NCBI RefSeq assembly: GCF_025526975.1
Contig: NW_026515697.1
Location: forward strand, 248,001 to 312,000
Direction: 5' to 3'
Length of the DNA stretch: 64,000 nt
Source: Fimicolochytrium jonesii
Taxonomy: Eukaryota
Shown: one piece after another, positions 32,593 through 64,000 of the stretch
How positions within the stretch are numbered: position 1 is the stretch's first letter
How the letters are laid out: each line of letters opens with the position of its first letter
Notes under the pieces: model-generated
What the model was told of the DNA's origin: nothing
Databases searched by the model: none
Seen by the model: only the letters and a program-made list of their open reading frames with translations
Position numbers and translations under genes: made by a program

Positions 32593-34378
32593 TCACTGGC
32601 AATATACTCGACACTTGACCAGGACGCTTTTCTCCGTCCTCAGTCCTGGATAATATGCAAATCTTACTTTCGGATTCTTTTCCCGGCCCTTCCTTTGCAT
32701 ACTTTCTTCATCGAAAGGAATACCGCGAAAATCTTCCCAGTCTTCGTCAATAGTCGAGAATGCATCCCTTCCATCCGGCACCGAGAAAGCATTGATACCG
32801 AGGGCGGCGCACTTGAATCGAAGTTTGATTGCGCGATGAATAAGGCTCAGGTAGAGCTCGGAGGACGGGGACGGGTTGAGATCATTTGTCTCCCAAAATC
32901 GTTGCATCCTAGTAAGCTCCCCAACTCGACATTGAAGTGATACAGAGCCACCCTTGTGACCGGGTCGAGGGAGTTAGACGTGATTGCTTCCACCATTCTC
33001 TGCCATACTTGACGCTCGAGGTGACTATCGGCCGCACATAGCTTTTCATAGTTTGGGTTCTGAGCGGAAGCTTGTCTCATCACCGCGAGGGATTGCGCAT
33101 ATTCGGCGGCCGGTACCCCTCTGATTGGGTGCGTGAAGACCTTGATCAAGCTCGTGGTGAGGCATCCCTCAACAAGATACATGAGATTGTTTTTCTTTGG
33201 TCGACTCTCCTCCGGCACCCCAAAGAATTCAAAGCCAGAGCACATGATGCGTTGAAGAATTTGCGAATCTGCGTCCGTAGCTTTGGCAGGGTTTGGTATC
33301 CATTCCGTAGTGTGCCCGTGGAGGTCTGTGTATATCGCTTCGAATTCATCGGCGATCTCTGTCGGAGTGTATGGCGAATCGATCTCGTAGAAGCCTTCGT
33401 GAGTGCGCGTGCGTTGGCCGAGTGCCCCTTCGGCTTGTGCCAAGGCGCTGCGTGTACGCTTCAGCTCCTGATCTAGGATTTGTCTCTCTTCTTCTTGATT
33501 CTTCAAGACAATCTGGAGGTTTGTATATGAGAGTTCCTTCTCCTTCAGCTGCTGCCGGGAGGATTGAAGCTGCGTTTGAAGGGTACTAAAAGCGTGTTCG
33601 GTATCCGTACGATACTTTTCATGCCGCGACAGTTTCTCTTCAAGGGTACGCTTCTCGCTAGCATGCAGCTGCTTTTCCGTGACGAGGATGCTGTTTTGCT
33701 CTTGCAGATTCTTGATGGTTTCCATTTTTACGGACCTGCCGATATCCATGGACCCGAGGACTTTTCGCATCAGACGTGTCGGTCGGACCTCCGCACATTG
33801 GGAAATCACTTCCTCGTTCCATTTTGCTCTTACTGTCGGCAACTGTTTCCTCACAACTTCCCATTCGGCCATACGTATACGGCAATCCATTTCTGTAAGG
33901 AACGCATACACCTTCAAGTCCTGAGATCGCTTGTCTATGACAGACCGACGCCACTTTTGTAAGATGGCATGCAAGCGTGTGATTTCCATGTCCGAGTCAA
34001 GCATGTTGGGAGTCCATTTGGAGCTCAGATTCAGGATGCGCTTTATGGGCGGAGCAAGACTGCTCTCGACTACCGGGGTGAGGTCTACATCGAGGTAGGA
34101 GTCCGGCAGGATGCGTCTGAGAGGTTGATATTGTTCGATGACATCGTAAAAGAAACCCCAGGCTGGGTATGATTCCCGAAGCCTTTTCAAAGCTGCAGGG
34201 CAAACCGCAAGCTGTTCAATTGTCTGTTTATACATACGCTTTAGTACTCTTTTCGAGCGTAAGATGAATGTGCACCTAGCAGTGCTCTTGCCTTCGGCCA
34301 TTTTTCCCCGTGCATCAACTCGTCTTCCTCAGCGACCTCTTCGTGCGGCGACCAATCGGTACTGGCACTTAATCCCAT
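32593..34378 (-). pseudogene. Coiled-coil protein with GrpE-like/MIEAP-like C-terminal domain, frameshifted near 32910-32970
   Basis: ORF 32847-34301 has a long heptad region (IKNLQEQNSILVTEKQ...LKRTRSALAQAEGAL). It continues in another frame to RGIPFDEESMQRKGREKNPKVRFAYYPGLRTEKSVLVKCRVYCQ*. I found no phase-compatible intron at the join. The start is uncertain (ATG 34378 with a GC-AG intron, or the ORF-track start at 34301). Confidence 0.55.
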
Positions 34379-34720
34379 TTCTGCTCGCTTGACCGGGCTT
34401 GTTGCATGAGGCTCTCTTGAGGTATCGAAGGAGGAGAACGCTCTGCTGGAAATACCTCAGATACATGTTCCATTTCTTTGCACAGTCCTGTTTCAAAATG
34501 GCAGAGAGGGTCCCGTTCCTTCAAAGCGACTCGGCACACTTGAAAAGTGACCAGCATTTGACCCTTTGGTCGCTGAAACTGTGGAGAAGCAAATCTAGAG
34601 GCCGGTGCCAGTATTTTGGCGCAGGCTATAAAGAACCAGGTTTCTGAGCACGCTCGACTTTTCTTACCTTCACGCCCAACTTTTCAGACGTCGATAGCGT
34701 TGTATTCTCAGCAAATTATT

Positions 34721-37394
34721 ATGCCCAACCCCAATCACTCAGCGCTGCTCATAGCCTCTGGCCACCGGATTGTCGTAGGAATCGACTTTGGGGTCAGTCA
34801 CAGCGGGTTTGCGTTTGCACATATCTCTGATGAACACAAAATCGATGGGTAAGACGCTTTCCTGCGCATTTGTTGGGAAGATCTCTAAACTCGGTTATTT
34901 CAATGATTTTACGAGTGGCCCGATCAGCTCTCGGTAAGTGCCCGGTCGGTTGGGTGAGGTGTCAAACGCTTGCTAATCCTCTTTCTGGGCAGCCCTACTG
35001 CAAAAACCTTACCGCCCTGTGGTACGATACCGGAAACCAGAAGACGGAAAGCTGGGGGTGAGTCCAATTTGGCTACACGGCTACACAGATACTGTTATAT
35101 CGAGTGTAGCCAGGCTAATATGTTTGTGAACAGATATACCGCCTTGAAAGATGCCTTCAACGACGATGCAGCAGGAACCGGCAAAATGTTACTCACGAAG
35201 ATCAAATTCCTCGTTGAGCCCAGCACAAACCACAACGCGGATGCGAACTTGCCCAATACCATTGATGCCCTCGAGCTTGTTGCAGAATACCTCCATCAGC
35301 TTTTCGAGTACTTGATGGAAAGGCTCCGGAACACATTTGGCACCACTTTGCAACCTGAGGACTTGCAGTATTGCCTCACAGTTCCAGGTATGGTTCACAA
35401 GCATCGCAATCATGACGCGGCTCAACAACTGCTCGATGCTCAACAACTTCAACACAGCCATATGGAGCGAGCACGCCAAGCATACCATGCGGCGCGCCGC
35501 TGCCCGTGCGGGGTAAGGGGGCGTACGTTACACGCCGACGAACCATCTTCTCTAATGGCTCATTCCGTTCTCTAGTTTGATTTCGCCCGGTGAGGTCAAC
35601 ATGCCCCGATTGAGCGTGGTCTTGGAGCCCGAAGCAGCGGCAATCTACTGTTTCAAGAAAGTCAAGGAAGCTCCCATGCGGCCCGGAGAAACCGCTATAG
35701 TCGTTGATGCAGGTATGGTCGGATCCTGTCAGTTGCTGTCAGTTGGAATGACAGGATACGCGCTGTCGAATTAATGCACGACAAACCGCTCAACGTGGTT
35801 CCTGTATTACTTCAATGTTCAGGTGGAGGAACGGTCGATATCGTCGCATACAGATTCCAATGTAAGTGATCCACGCTCCATTCTTCGCAAAGTTGCTGGA
35901 AATGTAGCGGTAAATCTAATCGTCTCATTCCTGTAGCTGGGATTGATGCCTCCCAGAAGATGGTTGAAGTTGCTCCGGGAACTGGCGGTCTCTGTGGGTC
36001 CACCTTCATTGACGAGGTCTTTTTGGACTGGTTGGGAAGCAAAGTGGGCAAGATGGCCCTTGCGGATCTCAAGCGCGAGAAAGGAGTTGACTACTTGCAA
36101 GGTACGCTTTTGTATCAACTCGCAGATTCAGAATTCCAGTCTCAATAGCTAAGCGGGTCTCCACCAGTGCTGACAACTTGGGAGAGAATCAAACGACAGT
36201 TCGAAGGGCCTGAGACGTTTCAGCGCCATGACAAGATCACTTTTGCTTTGCCTGCCGGCCTGTTCAATCTGATGAACGACGATCAAATGGAAGCCCTCGA
36301 AATGCAACAAGATAAACGGCCACCAGCGGTTGTAGCATAAATACTATGTCTGAGCATCATCTCCGTCGTTTCTCAAGACGGAGTCAGCGACAACGTCTAT
36401 ATTACTCTGGCGGACATGCAATCCTTCTTCGATCCAATCGTTGAGCAAGTGTTGCAGTTGATTGAGAAGCAACTTGACAAGTGTCCCAACAAAAGATCGG
36501 ACAAACTCTTCGGGGTTGGAGGCTTCATGGTCGGTATACCCATCGGCTTGCAATCCTGGTAAAGAAATCATTGCAATGGGGTCTGACAGCGTGCTTTCTT
36601 TTAGGCTTCCCCCTATCTTCAGAAAAAAATCAAAGAACGGATTTCCGACAAGTGCGGAATCATCATTTTTCCCAGGGACCCTGGCGCCGCTGTCGGTAAG
36701 ACAACCGAACAAGTGATGACTCTCGTTGTAAAAGACTCACACATACCTTTCCAACTTTTAGTGCAAGGCGCAGCTTGTAAGTTAAGCGGACCAAACACTT
36801 ATGAGATGATTTGCACTCAACCATTTTCTTTGCAGTGCACGGTTTGAACCCGCATGCAATCCAAGCTCGCTTCTCGCGATTCACGTATGCCTTCAAGCAT
36901 AACCTTGAGAAGCACCAATTCCTAACAAAATATCCAAGGGGTCCGGAACCAACAAGTGCCGACGTATTCCTCCATGAGGAGAAAGGGGTTCCCTATCTTC
37001 ACGTGTATCATCCTAAGATGACGGCCAACCAGCTGGTGGAAGTTCAGGACTTTTACAGCACCAAGGTGCGGTGATCAAACAACGTGTTGGCATTCAACGA
37101 TCCTCACCAGAACTAAATACCGCAATATAGGTTTACCCACTGTACAGCTGGCAGACATCCCTGACGCTCCAACTCGTCGCAACTGCAGAGGAATACAAAC
37201 AGGAGATGCCAGTCTCTTGCGTAAACGGACATTTTGATGTCGGGTCTTTGATCGTGGACGGCATCCCTCTCTCAGGCCCAGACCGTTCCGTTAAGTTGAC
37301 CTTCTATTTCGGTCTCACCGAGCTCACCGCTATCGCTCGTGTCAATGCCACCAATGACGAAAAACGAATCTCAGTCAATTTTTCTACTCGCTGA
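34721..37394 (+). CDS. Atypical HSPA12-like Hsp70, many short exons, probably pseudogenising
   Basis: IVVGIDFGVSHSGFAF, WPDQLS|PYCK, YCLTVP|AIW, VLEPEAAAIYC, VVDAG|GGTVDI, GGLCGSTFID, FFDPIVEQVLQLI, VGGFM|ASPYL, AVVQGAA, LTFYFGLTEL. Two splice sites look broken: acceptor TG at 34904-34905 and donor AT at 36312-36313. Confidence 0.87.
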
Positions 37395-41008: not shown

Positions 41009-41964
41009 ATGGTATGTCTCGACAGAACGTCTCAGCACTCGCCAATCGATTGATGGATAGGGGCAGCACGATGCACGATTTTGGGCGTGGGAAGCAGATG
41101 GATGGATGGATGGATGGATGGATGGATGGATGAAAGTGGAGGCGTGGGAATGATTGACAAATTGCCGGAATGAGGACGAACAATTGATCCTCGATCACAC
41201 GTTCGACACTGGGGAGTTGGTATGCTGCTTTGACGGGTGGGGTTGCTCCGGTGAAACGAAACCTCTGAAGGAATGGGAGAGGAATCGAGAGCTCCGGTGT
41301 AGTGGCAGTGGACAGACAACCCACGTGAGGATGCATGTTCGACGACTGGGAATGGTACTCATTTCGCCGGTACTCTGTAGGTCAACATTCCCAAGACCCG
41401 TAACACCTACTGCAAGGGTAAGGAGTGCAAAAAGCACACCCCCCACAAGGTGACGCAGTACAAGACCGGTAAAGCTTCCCTGTTCGCGCAAGGTACGTGA
41501 TGTCGACTCGGTTCTGGTTCAGCTGGTGCTTCTGTTCGATGGCTTTGTTGTGGAGAGTTTTGGAAAGCATTGGAGCGGACTGGAAGGGAAATGGAGGGAC
41601 TTCTGAAGACTTTGAACAGCTGGGAACTTTGAACCTGGGGACCCGCGAAGCTCACGCATTCATCCCCTGCCTACAGGAAAGCGTCGTTACGACCGGAAGC
41701 AGTCCGGTTTCGGTGGTCAGACCAAGCCCGTCTTCCACAAGAAGGCCAAGACTACCAAGAAGATTGTCCTTCGTCTTGAGTGCACCGCTTGCAAGTACAA
41801 GCACCAGATTGCCCTCAAGCGATGCAAGCACTTCGAGCTTGGTACGTGGATGGAGCTTGTCGACTATACGAGTTTTGCCATCGGTCATCTCAAATCACGC
41901 TGCTCACTCCCTTTTCGTTTCAGGTGGTGACAAGAAGACCAAGGGTGCTGCCCTTCAATTCTAA
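41009..41964 (+). CDS. RPL42: 60S ribosomal protein eL42 (L42/L44/L36a), 4 exons
   Basis: ATG|intron 41012-41380|[94 protein letters not shown]. Confidence 0.96.
41097..41132. repeat. (GATG)9 microsatellite in RPL42 intron 1
   Basis: Direct read of the tandem GATG units. Confidence 0.95.
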
Positions 41965-45113: not shown

Positions 45114-45186
45114 TTAGGGTTAGGGTTAGGGTTAGGGTTAGGGTTAGGGTTAAGGATGAGCAACAGGGGTTAGGGTTAGGGTTAGG
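45114..45186 (+). repeat. Interstitial telomeric repeat (TTAGGG)n
   Basis: Six perfect TTAGGG (45114-45149), one TTAAGG, a 14-nt spacer, then TTAGGG x2 plus TTAGG. Confidence 0.95.
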
Positions 45187-51994: not shown

Positions 51995-53910
51995 GTCGCG
52001 GGTTCTAGTATGGCATCTATCCGCCGGATAGCTCACGCAACTCTGCGCAGGATAGCCGGACCTTCCCTTGGGCACAATCGCCATGTGATAAAAGCAGGGC
52101 CTCGCGCTTTGAAGCTCATTTGCAACATGTTTGCAGAAGAGCCAAAGCGGTTTTTGCCAAGGTAAGCTTTGGACCCAAAAATTCAGCCAATCCATTGTTT
52201 ACCCGGGGAGGCAGCGGAAGGCCCGGGTTGTTACAATCACCGTTTTCCCTTTCTCTTGACTTGATTGCCCGCTTGCCGAGCCGCCACAGACTGTGGACCC
52301 TCGGGAAGACTGCAAACACGCGGGTGTGGCATTGGATGGAACATGAGTTTCATAGCCGTTATTAGTTGGGTCGTGCCTCGTGCTGCCTGCCAGCATGAGG
52401 AGTGGCCGGTCGGGGCGACCGCGTAAGGCGTCCTAGGCGTGGTGGCCCCTCTTGAGAGCCGCTGCACACGTCCATCCCACTCCACTGGGACTGACCCCTT
52501 TGAAATTGCTGAACATAACAGCGTGCTGCGTAAACCATTTGTGTCCTGCCATTAATATTGCGGTCCTGCGGGACGAGCTTTTTCTTTCACCTTAGAACAT
52601 GAAAGTTGAGCGCTAGCAAACCACCACATCCAAGCCGCGGCAGCTGTACCACTGCGAACAAAGCTTGCTAAAGACTACCGGTCGCATTCGTGGACATAAT
52701 GTACGTCACCGAGCCGCGAATTAATGGCTTTGCCGCCATGCAGGGTCCAAGCGCTACCAACGTGTGGATACGGACTATCGCTGTCGGGCCCGAAAGCTGC
52801 TGGACGCCACAAAAGAGGAATCGCAGGTGGCCTCCTTTGGACCTGAAGGGAGGAGGACAGATTCCAAATTCCAAAAGCCCGATGTTCTTGCGCAAAGGAC
52901 CTCACGGAACGTCAATTCTCGACATCCCGTCCGTCCTTATCTTGTACAACGGCGAGCCGCTCGATGAAAAGACCATCCTGCTGCGGTCGTCGGAGGTTCT
53001 GCCGCCTGCGGCCGTGAAGCTCCTTGACGTACTTGGCGACAAGGAGACGAAACGTGATATTTCAAATAACATGGTCATGCAAGGCGACCTTCCCGCGGCC
53101 TTCACCTTCATTCATAATCATGCTAAGTTGACGCAAGCACTGGCAATTGCTCTTATCTCAGAGGTATGCATTGCCACCTTCCCTGCGGACCCTTGTGGGG
53201 GACTGAGTTGCCGCACTGCCTGCGCTATCCCTTTGGCCGCAGGCCGCGTGTCTCACATGTCTTCTATCCGCCGGATATATACGCTGTCTCAGCGGTACCC
53301 CATTGAAACGCCGGGTCTCGAGAATCAAATTCTTCAGAAGTATTGTCGCACGCGCGAAACGGAAACGAATGGCCCTCAGCAAGAACTGCTACCGTTGACG
53401 CAAATCGAGCTTAGGATGGAGCACCTCACCCGTCCTATAAACCCTGTCCGGGTCGAGAGGATTGTGTAAGTTGGGAACATCGGAAACACTCAAAGGGTGG
53501 AACAATTCACTTACTCGCCTTCATTCCGATTCACAGCGGCAATCTGAACCAAACAAGAGAGTTTGATTTCACCAAGCCACTGGTTGTCGTTGCCAAAGAG
53601 AATGAAGACGGAGAGATTGCAGACGAGGCTGCCAAATATTACATGCTGGGCGGCGCACACCGCTACACAGCTTTGCAAGAATACAACTCTGCGGCCGCAG
53701 CGGGCTCCCGCATCTTGAAGGTTAGTGTCTGTTATGGACAACTATTGTCCCACTGACAGTGACGGCAAAGAACAACGCGCGTGTATCTAAATGCTAATGC
53801 GTGTGAAGCTCCACTTATGGCCTAGCCTCGACGCGTGCGCTGAAGTTCAAGCCATTGTTCAAGAAAGCACTGTTGTAGTCTATGCCCTCCGGAGGCTCCC
53901 CAGAAGTATA

Positions 53911-55757: not shown

Positions 55758-55873
55758 AATTGTATGTCCAGCCATCTCTGTTTGTTTAAACTCCGCGTCA
55801 TTCGGGCGTAGTGCGCGCAAGTTGTCGGTTACTGGCCACACGCCCTGCTCGTATGTCGTCAATGAACTTTGTG

Positions 55874-56425
55874 TGTTATGGACGACGCGCCCATACCATA
55901 AGCTTACCTACTGACAGCCGCCAATGTGAACCGCCAATGTCAAACGCCAATGTCAATGTCAATGTCAGTGTCAGTGTCAACGTCAGTGTCAATGTCAATG
56001 TCAATGTCAATGTCACTCCCCCTCTCTCCTCTCATTTTGCCAATCCTCCCGCAATATCGCCGCTCCTCCTCTCTCCTCTCATTTTGCCAATCCCCCCTCG
56101 GCTTCTCCACATCCCCCACTACTTCTCCATAGCCAGCAGCTGTAGCAATGCCCTCTACGCTCGCCACGCACGCTCTAGCAGCATAGCTGGCACCCCCCCC
56201 CAGTCCCCTCTTGTTGTTGTTGTTCTCTGGCCTGCTGGGTTGCCTATCTATAAATAGCCGGTCTCTCTTCGTCCATTCCCTTCCTCCCCAGCAGATCAAC
56301 ACCAGTTCTTCTCGTCTCTTGTTCTAGTCCTTGTCTCTTGTTTCGCCAATACAATCTCTTGTTGCCTATCACTCTCGCCTTGTCTTCTCTACTTCGCTTC
56401 CGCCTCAGCCGTCGAGATCATAACA
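55874..56425 (+). mobile_element. Solo LTR of the downstream chromovirus family
   Basis: TGTTATG...CATAACA termini. Colinear and highly similar to LTR 57430-57969, with an internal (A[A/G]TGTC)n hexamer array and TATAAATA. Confidence 0.95.
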
Positions 56426-57429
56426 CTCCATGCTGCGGTGTGTTCCCAGGGTGGGAGCCCATAAACACCTTCATCGTGTTCACAGAAGCCACCCTTGGCG
56501 AAGAGGTCTTGTTCGTGGTTCAGCAATTTCGGATAGTCGATGAGGAGCGTAAGGAGCTGAAGGTACCATGGAGCTTCTCGCCATATGGGGGTAATCAGCG
56601 TAATGGTTGCTCCGTCCGTGACGACCTTGTCGAGCACTTGTTGAATGGCGAGCCAAGGGGGATTGGCCCAGCCATTCTCAGCGTCCCAGCGAATCTTGAA
56701 GGCGTCGTGGGCAATTGCATTGGTGTCCGTCTGGTCGACCGAGCAGTACCTTGAAACTTGAGCGTTCTGCTTCATGGCTAAGAGGTTCACAGTGTGGCTT
56801 TGTGGGCCTCCCCAGGGTCCGTCATCGAGTTGCTGGAAGATGTCCGGGTGCAATTGCCAATAGTTCTTGTCAACCAGGTTGATCAAGTAGAGTTCCTTTT
56901 CGGGTGGCGGAGACGGGTAGCGTGTTTGGTCAGGGTCCTCTGAGTCGGGTTTTTCTTCTCCCAACTTGGACAGGTGTTGGGGTTGTAACAATTCGTCAGC
57001 TGTTGTTATTTCTCCGCGCGTCCCCCAGTCGCTTTCGGAGTCGGAATCCCTGCCTCTTCCCGGGTCTGATGGTGACCGAGCAGGAAAGGTCAGGCTTTCA
57101 TCCTGGTCTTGAGGCAGCAATTCTCCGGGGTCTTCCTGCTCAAGAGCCGTTGGTTCCAGGACTAGTAGGCTCTCGGCTCCTAGCCCTGGCGGGTAAAATG
57201 CCGCTTCTCAGCATTGGCATTTCCCGCCTTGGGGCTTTGTTTGTTGGGGCATACTGGTCTCCCCGTCTCGCGATCCACGTCGTCCTTGAAGTGGTCTCCT
57301 CCGCAGGCGTAACACTTTCCGTCTCCGATCCTTGGTGGTCCTCCCGGGGACTGGCCATTGTTAATCTGCACCTTGGCCATTTGCGATGCAATTTTGGCAA
57401 CCGCTTTCTTGACAACTTCCTGTACTTGC
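56426..57429 (-). mobile_element. Fragment of a second retroelement: Gag zinc knuckle, -1 frameshift site and DNA N6-adenine methyltransferase
   Basis: Gag end CYACGGDH...VCPN...AGNA..QG* (stop 57180-57182). Slippery heptamer G GGA AAT at 57225-57219. The -1 frame leads to WQLHPDIFQQLD..WGGP..TVNLLA..NAQVSRYCS..AHDAFKIRW..WANPPWLAIQQVLDKV..LITPIW..PWY..AAW. Both ends are cut by chromovirus LTRs. Confidence 0.85.
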
Positions 57430-57969
57430 TGTTATGGACGACGCGCCCATACCATAAGCTTACCTACTGACAGCCGCCAATGTCAACCGCCAATGTCAAA
57501 CGCCAATGTCAATGTCAATGTCAGTGTCAATGTCAGTGTCAATGTCAATGTCAATGCCACTTCCCCTCTCTCCTCTCATTTTGCCAATCCTCCCGCAATA
57601 TTGCCACTCCTCCTCTCTCCTCTCATTTCGCCAATCTCCCCTTGGCTTCTCCACACCCCCCACTACTTCTCCATAGCCAGCAGCTGTGACAATGCTCTCT
57701 ACGCTCGCCACGCACGCTCTAGGAGCATAGCTGGCGCCCCCCCCCAGTCCCCTCTGGTTGTTGTTGTTCTCTGGCCTGCTGGGTTGCCTATCTATAAATA
57801 GCCGGTCTCTCTTCGTCCATTCCCTTCCTCCCCAGCAGATCAACACCAGTTCTTCTCGTCTCTTGTTCTAGTCCTTGTCTCTTGTTTCGCCAATACATTC
57901 TCTTGTCGCCCATCGCTCTCGCCTTGTCTTCTCTACTTCGCTTCCGCCTCAGTCGTCGAGATCATAACA
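57430..57969 (+). repeat. 5' LTR (540 bp)
   Basis: TGTTATG...CATAACA termini; TATAAATA at 57793-57800. Confidence 0.96.
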
Positions 57970-57971
57970 GT

Positions 57972-57981
57972 TTGATCTGCT
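57972..57981 (+). promoter_or_regulatory. Self-priming primer-binding site
   Basis: TTGATCTGCT, 2 nt after the LTR, is the exact complement of AGCAGATCAA at 57834-57843 in the LTR. It lacks the TGG of tRNA-primed PBSs. Confidence 0.8.
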
Positions 57982-58038
57982 CCAACACTACGAAGTTCAG
58001 AACCCGTCCAGCCCTGCATCTGCCACACCTTTTTTGCC

Positions 58039-59045
58039 ATGTCCCAATCCGAATCCGTACCTTTCACCGCCTAGCAATGGAATGATATGTGCCAAGCCAT
58101 CGCCGCCTTGCAAAGCCAAAACACCAACTTGCAGGCCAACCTAGCGCAAGCCCAAGCCAACGCACAAGCTGAGCAGAACATTGCTGCCCAGGTTCAAGCC
58201 GATGCGTTCGCCCATCCTCAAGTCACCAACCCTGCTCCCGGAGCTCTGGAGCCAAGAATCAGCTCGCCGGAGAAGTTTGATGGTACCCGCAGCTAATTCC
58301 GTGGGTGGTTGAACAACATCCGGTTGATGTTTGCTCTCCAGCCCGACCGCTACCCCAGCGACATCATCAAGATCCAAACGATTGGGACCCACCTCACCGG
58401 CACTGCGCAAGCCTGGATGGCGCCCCTAGTCGAACGCCAGATCACAGCCTTCAGAACTTCGATAGTTTTATCGGTCAGATGCAATCTGTCTTCGGGGACA
58501 GCGACAGGGTCCGCACCTCCGAGAACAAGCTCCAGAACCTTCGCCAAACCCGTGCAGCCACCGAGTACGTCGCCAAGTTCCTCCAGCTACAATGCAATGT
58601 CTCCTGGAACGACCAGGCCCTGATTGCTACCTTCCGCCGTGGCCTCAAAGAGGACGTCAAGGATCTGATGCTCACGATGCCTCTTGCTGCCACCATTGAT
58701 ACGGTGATGGAGCAGGCGATCCAGTGCGATAACCGACTGTTTGAGCGCCGCCTGGAACGAAACAGAACCCGCCAGACCTTCCCAGTTCCCCATACCTCGT
58801 TTACCACTACCCTCACCGTCGACCACAGCGAGCCCATGCAGATTGACGCCGCTCGTCCCTGCGGCCCTCTGAGCCCCCAGGAACGCCAACGCCGCATTTC
58901 CAACAACCTCTGCCTTTACTGCGGCGGCGCAGGGCACATTGCAAAGGCCTGCCCCGTCAAGAACAAGACCACCACCCATGCCGCCAACATCGACATCAAA
59001 GAAACCTCCGCCGAACAGGGTTTTCCCAAAGTCCAGCCGCAGTAA
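58039..59045 (+). pseudogene. gag: Chromovirus gag (stops and a frameshift)
   Basis: EPRISSPEKFDG, LTGTAQAW, LQNLRQ..EYVAKF, FRRGL, PMQID and CCHC knuckle CLYCGGAGHIAKAC. Confidence 0.92.
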
Positions 59046-59062
59046 AGCCCCAGCGACTGGAC
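59018..59062 (+). promoter_or_regulatory. -1 ribosomal frameshift signal at gag/pol junction
   Basis: In-phase heptamer G GGT TTT, 6-nt spacer, then stem GTCCAG(C)CGC...GCG(A)CTGGAC. The -1 frame stays open past the gag stop. Confidence 0.72.
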
Positions 59063-62000
59063 AACACACGCTCCGCCGGGCCTCCTAACCTCGCAGCTCC
59101 TGCAACGGAAGAGGCCATCCCCCTGGTTCCCGACTCCGTTATAGCCGACACAACCCTCCTAGCCGCCGCCCATGTCGAAAACTCCAAAATTAAACATTGC
59201 GCTGGGTCCTGCTGAACCCTTCAACTACCCCGTTACCATCATGGTATCATCCAGCCATGCCCCGATACCTACCTCAGCCATGATTGACAACGGGGCCCTG
59301 TCCTGCTTCATCGACGAAGACTTTGCCCGCAAGCACCGCATGCCCCTAGTCCAGCATCAGCGTCCCCTGACGATCGAACTCGTTGACGGTCAACCCAGCT
59401 CTGCTGGGCCAATCACCCATCACACCCAACCAGTAGGCATGTGGGTCGACGACTACTTCGAAGAACTCGTCTTCCATGTCACCAAATCACCCCACGCTCC
59501 AATCCTCCTTGGTCTCCCCTGGCTCCGCCTCCACGACGTTAACCTTGACTTCAAGAACCTTTCGGTCGGTTTCCGTTCCGACTATCAGTACCATGAATTC
59601 GCAAATTGGGACCGCTCCCCAGCACACCCGAGCCCAGCACCCGCCAGAACTCCTGAGCCCTTGATCCGCATCCCCCAGGATGAAGTCCCTGTCGACGAAA
59701 CATGGTCGATCCCAGTACCCAAGGTGTCTCGCTCCAGCACCCCAGAACCGGCTTCCACGCCGCTCTGAGTATCGTTCATCTCCGCCCCAGCCTTCCGCGT
59801 CGCGGCAAGGCATGACCAGGTCCTTGTCGCCTACGCCAACCCTGCGAAACCCGAGCTCCCGGCCTCGCCTAGCCCCAGGACCCTCCCAACACCCGAGAAA
59901 GACATCAAAGACTTCCTGCCCCCCGAATATCAAGATTTTGCCGATGTTTTTGAAAAGAAAAATGCTGACACTCTCCCCGAGCACCGGCCCTACGACTGTC
60001 CTATCGACCTGAAAGAAGGCAAGCAGCCACCTTTCGGCCCGATCTACAGCCTCATCAAACCAGAAATGAAAGCACTCTGCGAATACCTCGAAGAAAACCT
60101 CGCCAAAGGATTCATCAAACACTCAAAGTCCCCTGCCGGTGCGCCGGTCTTATTCGTGAAGAAAAAGGACGGTTCTCTCCGCCTCTGCGTCGATTATCGA
60201 GGCCTGAACAGCATCACGGTGAAGAATCGCTACCCCCTGCCCCTGATCAACAGTATCATGGACCGTTTGCGCGGCGCCCGCCGTCTCGGCAAGATCAACC
60301 TCTGCGGCGCTTACAACCTCTTACGCATGCGCCCGGGCGATGAATGGAAGACCGCCTTCCGCTGCCGCTACGGCCTATTCGAATACAATGTCATGCCCTT
60401 TGGACTCAGCAACGCTCCTGGCGTTTTGCAGTACCTGATGAACGACATCTTCCGCCACATTCTCGATGTGTTTGTTGTCGTCTACCTTGATGATATCCTG
60501 ATATTCTCCAAGAACCCCCTTGGCGGGGCATTGGGTGTGACTTATACTGGAACAGGGGACTCCATATCAGCAAATGTCCTTGCTCCGGCTCTCGATTCGG
60601 GAAATAAAATAGGAGTTCGCTTGGGCACGGCCGTTTCAGCCAATAACGCATTTGAATTGCGATGTACTAATGTAGGTACAGGTTCTGCCGAAAACTATGT
60701 TGTAGCTTCATTTTATGGCAGTACGGTTGATACACTCAGGTTGTATGCTTCAGGGGTTGTTTCCCTTTTAGTCACGACTGATGCAAACGCTGTTGAAACG
60801 GGGTCATTTCAGGTGAAAGGTGGATCAAGTGTTTCTAGAACTCCCTACATGGGGAACTCCACTGCTTTTACTGGCGCGTCCGTACCTCTCATTGTTTCCC
60901 AAAACGCCACGGTGGCTACTGCTCTAACAATCCACAACTCAGCAGTTACCAATGGCTCCTATACATTCGGAGTGTCCGGAACCAGTCATGCTCTAGGTTC
61001 AGGCGAGTTCTTCCTTTCCAGCGGGGCGTTGTCCGGAGCAAATATCTTTTACGTCTTGCCGACAGGAGCAATGGTTTTTCCATCTTCTCTTGATGAGTCT
61101 GTCGCTCTTACAGGAGGAGCACGTATTTCCAAAAATTTAGTTGTTACCGGCGCTACCAGCAGCACACTTTTATCTGTGAATGAAGACGGTACTCTAGTTT
61201 TTGGTGCATCCTCAACAGGTCCACGGTTTGTCAAAACTTTGGGTCAAGATGTACGTTACGTACCAGGCGCACAAGGTTTTCGTATACGCGACTCTGGAGC
61301 ACGTCCGCGAAGTCTTGTCCTGCCTCCGCCAGCATGGGCTGTACGCCAAACCTGAGAAGTGCGAATTCAACTGCGAATCTGTCGAGTTCCTAGGCTTCAT
61401 CATCTCCAAGAAAGGCATACAGATGGACCCCAAGAAGATCGCTGCCATCACGGATTGGGAGGCTCTTAAGAATGTCAAAGGCGTCCAGCGCTTCCTCGGC
61501 TTTGCCAACTTCTATCGCCAATTCATCCAAGGTTATTCCAAGATTGCTACCCCGCTCACAGCCCTGACCCGGAAAGACATCCCGTACGCCTGGACGCCCG
61601 CCGCAAACACCGCCTTCGAGAACCTGAAGAAATCATTCACCACCGCCCCCATCCTTGCTCACCCTGACCCAGAAAGCCCTTCGTCGTCGAAACTGACGCC
61701 TCCGACTTCGCTCTCGGCGCAGTTCTCCTCCAACCTGACCAGGACAATCAGCTCCACCCTGGGGCCTTCCACTCTCGCAAACTCATGGCCGAAGAGATCA
61801 ACTACAAGATCTACGACAAAGAGCTTCTGGCCATCCAAGACTCCTCTGCCCAGTGGCGACACCATCTCATTGGCGCCCGTCACAAGATCACCGTTTACTC
61901 CGACCACAAAAACCTTCAGTACTTCATGACCACCCGCACCCTGAACCGCCGCCAAGCCTGCTGGTCGATATTCTTCTCGGATTTTGATTTTGTCATTACC

Positions 62001-63600
62001 TATCGCCCCGGTTCCCAGCAGCACCAAGCCGATGCCCTCTCCCGACGCTCCGAACATGAGCTAAAGGAGGGGGAAGAAGCGTTCTGCTCCCAGGCGACCA
62101 CAATTCTGACTCCCGAACGCCTTCGACTCGCCGCGGCCTACCTCACACCCATGGATACTACGCTGGTTGACAAGATTAAGGCCGCCCAGGCCTCTGACCC
62201 CCTCGCTAAGACCATCCGCAAAGAGCTCAAGATACCCCTTGCCCAACGGACGAAACCCAAGATCGTATCAAGCGGTTCTCAGATGAAGATGGGATCCTGC
62301 TGCACGATAACCTTGTCTATGTCCCCACCAATGAGCTCCGAGCTGAAGTCTGCCACGACATGCACAATGCACCCCTAGTCGGCCACTTTGGGATGTCCAA
62401 GACGCTCGAACTTGCCTCCCGCAACTACTGGTGGCCCAGCCAGTGGCGCTTCGTCAAGGCCTACGTCAAGTCCTGCGATATCTGTAGCCAAGCGAAATCC
62501 AGTCGACACAAACCGTATGGCGTACTCCAGCCCAACATATCCCTACCCGCCCTTGGGAATCTTGGTCCCTGGACTTTATCACCGGTCTGCCTCCCGTTGA
62601 TGGGTACGACTCCATCCTGAACGTCAACTGTCGCCTCACCAAGATGGCCCACTTCATCGCCTGCAGCGAGTCAAAATCCGCCGAACCCACCGCCGACCTA
62701 GTCTTCCACAATATCATCCATCTCCACGGCCTCCCCGACGACATCATCTCTGACTGAGGACCCTAGTTCAAGTCCCGTTTCTGGCGTCGACTTCTCAAAC
62801 TCCTTGGGGCGAAAGCCAACATCTCCTTGGCCTTCTACCCCCAGAGCGACGGCCAGACGGAACGCACCAACCAGACCCTGGAGCAGTATCTCCAATGCTT
62901 TTGCAACCACCAACAGGACAAATGGAAACGGCTTCTGTCGTCCGCCGAGTTCGCCTACAAAAACACCCACCAGTCCGCTTCCCAGACCACCCCCTTCTAC
63001 GCAAACAAGGGTCTCCACCCCCGCTTCAGTTTCGCTGCCTCTGCTACCTCCGAATCCGTCAACCCCGCCGCTGAAGCCCACGCTAAACAAATCAGGGGAG
63101 TCCACGAACAGCTCGTCCTTGAGCTCAAGGAAGCGCAAGATCGAATGAAGCGCTACGCCGATGCTAAGCGAATTCCTGGACCGGACTTCAAGCCTGCTGA
63201 CCACGTCTGGCTCCTCCGCAAAAACCTCCAGACAACCCGGCCCTCTCAGAAACTCGACCATCGCAAGATTGGGCCATTTCCCATTGTTGAAAAGATCAAT
63301 CCAGTCGCCTACCGGCTCAAGCTCCTGCCTACGTACAAAATCCACGATGTCTTCCATGTCTCGCTCCTCGAACCCCGCTTCACCATCCCCAAACGACACG
63401 AACCCGAACCCGCGGCCCCAGAGACCGTTGAGGGTCGAGAAGAGTGGGTTGTCGAAGCCATCCTTGACTCTCGCATCCATCGTCGTCGCCTTCAGTACTT
63501 GGTCAAATGGCAGGGCTGGCCTGACTCCGAGAACACCTGGGAGCCCGTGGAACACCTCACCCATACCGACTGCACTCCTCAAGGACTTCCACAGCGCGTA
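59024..63600 (+). pseudogene. pol: Chromovirus pol (PR-RT-RH-IN-chromo), disrupted
   Basis: Domain motifs occur in Ty3/Gypsy order across several frames. RT is interrupted by a foreign insert after [12 protein letters not shown]. Confidence 0.93.
60519..61293 (+). other. Foreign ~775-bp stop-free coding insert resembling a viral fibre protein, inside RT
   Basis: Sits between RT ..[12 protein letters not shown] and LEHVREVL... Gly/Ser/Thr/Ala-rich, with [27 protein letters not shown] and [17 protein letters not shown]. Codons are T/A-ending, unlike the C-ending codons of the retroelement. Confidence 0.8.
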
Positions 63601-63677
63601 CCCCAACAAGCCTTCCTCTGTCCCCGGTGCCCCTCCTCCGCGACCACACCAAACTCGGCGCCGCCGCCGCCGCCGCT

Positions 63678-63688
63678 AAAGAGAGGGG
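63678..63688 (+). promoter_or_regulatory. Polypurine tract
   Basis: AAAGAGAGGGG immediately before the 3' LTR. Confidence 0.85.
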
Positions 63689-63691
63689 TGA

Positions 63692-64000
63692 TTTTATGGT
63701 CGACGCGGCCATACCATAAGCTTACCCACTGACAGCCGCCAATGTGAACCACCAATGTCAAACGCCAATGTCAATGTCAATGTCAGTGTCAGTGTCAATG
63801 TCAGTGTCAATGTCAATGTCAATGCCACTCCCCCTCTCTCCTCTCATTTCGCCAATCCTTCCGCAATATTGCCGCTCCTCCTCTCTCCTCTCATTTCGCC
63901 AATCCCCCCTCGGCTTCTCCGCATCCCCCACCACTTCTCCATAGCCAGCAGCTGTAGCAATGCTCTCTACGCTCGCCTCGCAAGCTCTAGGAGCATAGCT
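63692..64000 (+). repeat. 3' LTR (partial)
   Basis: Colinear with 57430 onward; terminal TG mutated to TT. Confidence 0.95.

Follow-up and report, generated by a model that had tools for sequence, protein, structure and literature searches.

Does a head-to-head pair of genes in the soil chytrid Fimicolochytrium jonesii encode an Hsp70 together with a cofactor of its own, and is this copy of the pair still intact? The pair lies in a window of 64,000 nucleotides (contig NW_026515697.1, positions 248,001 to 312,000 of the forward strand; all coordinates below count from the first letter of the window). It consists of an atypical Hsp70 gene on the plus strand and, on the minus strand, a gene referred to here as the partner. 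A preliminary reading made from the letters of the DNA alone (the sequence-only reading) had described two divergent genes, and this arrangement holds: the Hsp70 starts at 34721 (+) and the partner most likely begins at 34378 (-), about 342 bp away, or 419 bp if the alternative ATG at 34301 is used. The explanation favoured here, with a probability of roughly 0.55, is that the partner serves the adjacent lidless Hsp70 as a dedicated GrpE-fold cofactor and that this copy of the pair is a recent pseudogene.

The partner tail is predicted to have a GrpE-like fold, a beta-domain preceded by a helix. Its last 94 residues were modelled by AlphaFold2 with a predicted local distance difference test score (pLDDT) of 85, using an alignment of 41 rows that included 4 chytrid and 36 bacterial sequences. 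When this model was searched with Foldseek the first 11 rows were all GrpE or GrpEL1 (probability 0.84-1.00, best E-value (E) 0.008). Among the 48,161 chains compared with VIA-align, four GrpE chains lead (Z 6.8, 6.6, 6.2, and 4.8), while the best unrelated chain reaches 2.4; the top match, GrpEL1, superposes with a root-mean-square deviation of 2.9 over 77 residues. In profile comparisons the chytrid partners matched actinobacterial partners (P 66%, E 5.6e-5, with reversed and shuffled controls at or below 0.2%) and 13 other metagenomic partners (P 88%), and these 13 in turn matched GrpE (P 95%, E 3.3e-8). The GrpE-like C-terminus suspected in the sequence-only reading is thus recovered by predicted fold and not by Pfam, and the kinship to MIEAP and GIL1/IRKI, raised beside it, is weak. 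The tail scored E 0.012 and 16 bits against Pfam GIL1_IRKI_C (PF24994, cut-off 27) and did not match Pfam MIEAP (PF16026). Its Atlas neighbours are unnamed, mostly fungal clusters (0.93-0.95) followed by GIL1/IRKI and MIEAP at 0.86, a score that counts as a lead only, as the Atlas line is 0.9; the Spizellomyces homologue of the partner also falls to MIEAP at 0.86. MIEAP/SPATA18 and the C-terminal domain of plant GIL1/IRKI are the nearest named families, below threshold by both routes, and in the literature searched (few subscription journals were covered) they are not described as Hsp70 cofactors. Compared by sequence with solved structures, the tail returned noise only. For 71 bacterial partners, the Pfam families among the 25 matches listed of 192 were exclusively coiled-coil ones.

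A conserved two-gene Hsp70/partner unit exists in bacteria. The NCBI model that corresponds to the chytrid Hsp70 gene (EV422DRAFT_509232, uncharacterized protein, one exon matching at 100%) matches 8 Streptomyces plasmid genes across most of its length. Four of these plasmid Hsp70 genes were fetched, and each is followed 7-10 bp downstream by a gene of about 240 codons. A genome scan, from which the best 80 of 158 relatives were taken, brought the set to 84 actinobacterial loci in all. A homologous partner lies directly downstream of the Hsp70 in 78 of them. The gap between the two genes is -6 to 27 bp in 75 of the 77 loci measured (3 short matches were omitted), and the remaining two are halves of split genes. 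Of 151 Streptomyces genomes, 8 gave a match to the partner and 7 to the Hsp70; both, adjacent to each other, occur in 6 (one being the seed genome). Every full-length copy, 6 in number, belongs to a pair, and the 3 matches without a mate are fragments in the stretches fetched. Across 70 pairs, the identity matrices of the two genes are correlated (rho 0.62, reached in 0 of 999 permutations), a correlation to which shared ancestry contributes. In metagenomes, where the best 80 of 377 were taken, the partner was present in 19 of the 43 loci with at least 1.2 kb of downstream sequence. A profile built from chytrid partners only and run against 4,027 bacterial open reading frames (ORFs) placed bacterial partners in 10 of its top 13 matches, with E < 0.01 for the best only. 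Separate canonical GrpE genes are retained in all five host bacteria checked, and no DnaJ was seen in the bacterial Hsp70/partner unit. Two contigs show other arrangements. In L167:1472-4078 one open frame fuses the Hsp70 with the C-terminal part of the partner (a single contig, possibly a frameshift artefact), and in L095:3-1088 (-) a long coiled-coil ORF stands head to head with a related Hsp70, its tail cut by the contig end.

Several observations weigh against the cofactor reading. On the side of the fold, the tail model relied on the bacterial rows (36 of 41), and a single-sequence fold gave a pLDDT of only 44.7. None of the Foldseek rows had an E below 0.001, and a Z below 8 can reflect a common arrangement. 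Pfam GrpE (PF01025) matched neither the tail (E up to 10) nor the five chytrid homologues (E up to 1), direct profile comparison of the chytrid partners with GrpE was not significant (E 0.1), and the HEA and R..RPA motifs of GrpE are not retained in the partner. On the side of linkage, 6 of the 84 actinobacterial Hsp70s (L023, L033, L034, L036, L039, and L067) have no partner in their flanks. The bacterial unit is co-oriented, unlike the head-to-head chytrid pair. The other 24 of the 43 metagenome loci, where no partner was seen, are eukaryote-like, and 23 of these apparently form one tight fungal-type clade (4 were placed in the tree). Where eukaryote-like metagenome loci offer 2.5 kb or more of upstream sequence, a head-to-head partner was seen in 0 of 14, although introns or divergence could conceal it. 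The recurrent linkage anticipated for such genes was therefore found as a bacterial two-gene unit and not as a head-to-head pair in eukaryote-like metagenomes. Two of the six partnerless actinobacterial Hsp70s were placed in the tree, where they cluster together.

The count of 0 of 14 would also be expected if the two genes were chance neighbours in this chytrid, the partner being a MIEAP/GIL1-like protein that works without this Hsp70, and the nearest named Atlas clusters of the tail point the same way. However, each gene separately matches one member of the same bacterial operon, the partner through the 10 of the top 13 profile matches, and coincidence appears improbable.

If the partner is a cofactor, its mode of action can be sketched by analogy. 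The beta-domain of GrpE enters the nucleotide cleft of DnaK and rotates subdomain IIB, according to PMC4753570. Since a domain of predicted GrpE fold accompanies one Hsp70 subfamily in different kingdoms, the simplest assumption is that it plays the same exchange role there. The beta-domain of the partner would wedge into the ATPase cleft of the Hsp70, turn subdomain IIB, free ADP, and so reset the Hsp70. The coiled coil may provide a stalk or a means of dimerisation, and the choice of client or site of action might fall to the variable N-terminus. With a patchy distribution (about 4% of Streptomyces genomes), the unit is dispensable, and both genes could be lost together wherever the pair is not needed, a loss that has likely begun in this chytrid copy.

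Compared with GrpE/Mge1/GrpEL1 and their Hsp70s (PF01025 + PF00012), the partner shows the same order of a coiled coil, helices, and, at the C-terminus, a beta-domain predicted to fold alike, and its gene likewise stands beside an Hsp70 gene. It differs in its length, about three times theirs, in an additional N-terminus and helical domain, the latter separating the coiled-coil stalk (about 110 residues, in heptads) from the head, and in lacking a Pfam GrpE match. The Hsp70 is also unlike DnaK, being lidless, non-canonical, and distant from it in the tree. A further comparison is with the GAP1-N2 GTPase conflict systems, which in PMC7159879 include HSP70 and GrpE; the bacterial unit shares with them an extra actinobacterial Hsp70 and GrpE outside the housekeeping operon. 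That source describes a GTPase and FNIII/DnaJ proteins as further components, whereas none of these was seen among the 48 neighbours scanned by domain here.

Such systems suggest another role for the pair, as a conflict or immunity switch. In this view the partner would do more than recycle the Hsp70-type ATPase: it would hold the enzyme back or set it off, with the variable N-terminus of the partner as sensor of an invader. The presence of Hsp70 and GrpE in predicted conflict systems (PMC7159879) fits this role, as does the patchy distribution of the unit among Streptomyces genomes. Plasmid copies lie near toxin-antitoxin, Abi, HNH, and transposase genes, and the surroundings are variable (381 neighbour ORFs in 274 clusters, integrases and transposases among them). 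Fifteen of 80 loci have a patatin gene in the vicinity of the pair, and a few have vWA or PP2C. Downstream of the chytrid pair, the window contains genes for a T1-type RNase and a Het-C protein. On the other hand, no effector gene is common to most loci (48 of the 381 neighbours were scanned by domain), no GTPase was seen among these 48, and neither the Hsp70 nor the GrpE-like tail matched a PADLOC family, the remainder giving coiled-coil noise only. A conflict switch is considered unlikely, though less so than chance neighbourhood. The patatin-like phospholipases (e.g. L077:7802-9004) belong to loci many of which are closely related.

The plus-strand gene encodes a divergent Hsp70. EV422DRAFT_509232 matches Pfam HSP70 (PF00012; E 6.7e-07, 28.3 bits, cut-off 20.6), which identifies an Hsp70 ATPase domain, and matches DnaK structures with E 7.9e-05. 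Identity to actinobacterial homologues is about 31%. A FastTree phylogeny of 60 sequences places the Hsp70 with eukaryote-like metagenome sequences (support 0.987), beside the actinobacterial clade and far from DnaK, which is set apart by a long branch; the tree included no named HSPA12. The label HSPA12-type is a tentative one, given on sequence features. Like HSPA12A/B (Hsp70-12), the exon model has the EPxAA and GGxT motifs, lacks EEVD, and has a C-terminal part too short for a helical lid, whose absence is deduced from length and not from fold. It departs from motif 1 of HSPA12, DxGTT in PMC12692333, in reading DFGVS. The altered phosphate-1 loop noted in the sequence-only reading (DFGVSH) is confirmed: Val replaces a Thr found in all 110 homologues counted (70/70 bacterial and 40/40 metagenomic). 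No cofactor linked to HSPA12A/B was found in the literature searched. A word-index protein search with the Hsp70 matched only EV422DRAFT_509232 itself, which carries a precomputed Pfam family, PF27033, absent from the output of the local Pfam scan.

Read from its ATG, the Hsp70 gene gives a single frame over 14 exons, 588 codons without an internal stop, provided that 34905 is taken as the last base of intron 1 and 36312 as the first of intron 9. Eleven of the 13 introns are canonical. The two exceptions had been called broken splice sites at 34904 and 36312, and both calls stand (TG acceptor, AT donor), with both junctions fixed by homologue alignment. No canonical in-frame acceptor was found for intron 1, and the sole canonical bypass of intron 9 deletes most of exon 9 (144 nt). 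On inspection, intron 9 could not be taken as a U12-type AT-AC intron, since the frame would then break. The NCBI model skips exons 2, 3, and 9 and thereby evades both sites. Exon 9 presumably lies near subdomain IIB, and the product of a model without it is unlikely to work.

The partner is less of a coiled coil than had been supposed. The sequence-only reading saw a long coiled-coil protein, whereas the coiled coil takes up no more than about 110 residues in a protein of about 570 (amplitude 13.6 at period 3.5 versus at most 5.3 at five other periods). Starting the gene at 34378 with a GC-AG intron improves the score against two of four chytrid homologues (79 vs 65 and 31 vs 21) and ties for the other two; an alternative second frameshift near 34250 was dropped because the GC-AG intron is preferred. 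A frameshift further towards the C-terminus, already noticed in the sequence-only reading, was confirmed. A 56-nt GT-AG intron (33008-32953) that would hide it was rejected, since the frameshift model fits better in 6/6 homologue segments, reaches a summed score of about 940 against 809, and retains a conserved Trp. A search of 1.84 billion representatives yielded five relatives of the partner, exclusively in chytrids; word-index protein searches found nothing, and viral matches were looked for without any being found. The Borealophlyctis homologue (1123 aa, P0003) contains two tandem partner modules, either a true duplication or a fused gene model.

The pair thus carries three breaks, two Hsp70 splice sites and one partner frameshift. 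Four housekeeping genes of the same window, ARP1, STT3, KRI1, and an ABCC transporter (names read from translations, with Pfam support for ARP1 and KRI1), serve as controls and have 23/23 canonical introns and no break in 9,858 coding nt. If errors were evenly spread, the rough chance of all three falling in the pair would be 0.04. Against this, the lesions were part of the reason for choosing the pair, which biases the comparison, and as errors may also cluster, the controls lend decay only modest support. The deviations of the Hsp70 at 2 of 47 conserved columns, one of them the phosphate-1 loop Thr, form a pattern expected of a live gene too. It is conceivable, if doubtful, that the pair is alive and that all three breaks arose in assembly or are confined to a single allele, which would alter the decay part of the explanation and not the cofactor part. 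The 588 codons without a stop, the 11/13 canonical introns, and normal conservation are compatible with a live pair; a short homopolymer run lies inside the frameshift interval, and the acceptor lesion could be one missing base. Fimicolochytrium jonesii may be diploid. However, the donor lesion is a substitution, an invariant Thr is replaced by Val, and the controls are unbroken. Recent decay of the pair is accordingly considered probable and, from the lesions in its sequence, both genes are likely to be decaying together.

No account of an Hsp70/GrpE-fold partner pair was found in the literature searched. The eukaryotic cytosol has retained no GrpE according to PMC4753570. The function of HSPA12 is given as unknown in PMC13580251; a linked GrpE-fold partner makes the function of HSPA12-type Hsp70s experimentally approachable. 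With related genes forming a two-gene unit in many bacteria, the partner probably serves one branch of chaperones as its own helper. A broader proposal is more tentative: an undescribed two-component Hsp70 machine extending from filamentous bacteria to fungi, in which HSPA12-type ATPases have their own GrpE-derived cofactor, animal MIEAP and plant GIL1/IRKI are unlinked descendants of it, and the whole serves as a dispensable conflict switch. If true, this would place a GrpE-type exchange factor in the eukaryotic cytosol. The Fimicolochytrium copy extends the pair to chytrids and, being probably broken, is of value as a pointer and not as assay material.

Features of the gene pair and of neighbouring genes in the window
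Feature	Position	Strand	Description and evidence
Partner gene, ~570 aa	32593..34378	-	Variable N-terminus, coiled coil, helical domain, predicted GrpE-like head; one frameshift
GrpE-like head, 94 aa	32596..32877	-	Last helix and beta-domain, predicted; AlphaFold2, Foldseek, VIA
Frameshift interval	32855..32945	-	Exact base only bracketed; frameshift model wins
Coiled-coil segment, ~110 aa	33387..33734	-	Hydrophobic period 3.5; SMC-like weak matches at residues 190-300
Probable GC-AG intron of partner, 68 nt	34224..34291	-	In-frame join; homologue scores
Shared intergenic stretch, ~342 bp	34379..34720		Sequence; putative bidirectional promoter
Lidless HSPA12-type Hsp70 gene	34721..37394	+	14 exons, 588 aa reading through two broken splice sites
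Intron 1 acceptor, broken	34904..34905	+	TG instead of AG; exon 2 aligns to homologues
Intron 9 donor, broken	36312..36313	+	AT instead of GT; homologue alignment
T1/N1-type ribonuclease gene	37924-~38370	-	Directly after Hsp70; Pfam E 3.9e-12
Het-C family gene	45486-~48070	-	Thr-rich tail; Pfam E 2e-97
Glutamine synthetase type III N-terminus	52672-53466	+	Weak match, possibly a fragment; E 1.5e-05

The pair had been placed at the start of an accessory region. An intact-looking gene at ~41350-41950 (+), which from its translation we take to encode ribosomal protein eL42, lies 4 kb downstream of the pair and inside the supposed accessory region, whose boundary is therefore not clear-cut. Beside the Het-C gene there is an interstitial telomere-type TTAGGG array of about 12 copies (45114-45186). 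The end of the window (~55800-64000) is occupied by what we take, from its translations, to be a broken Ty3/gypsy-like retroelement with gag, protease, reverse transcriptase, RNase H, integrase, and chromodomain-like frames. The repeated ends of this element carry CAATGT arrays at 55935, 57478, and 63753.

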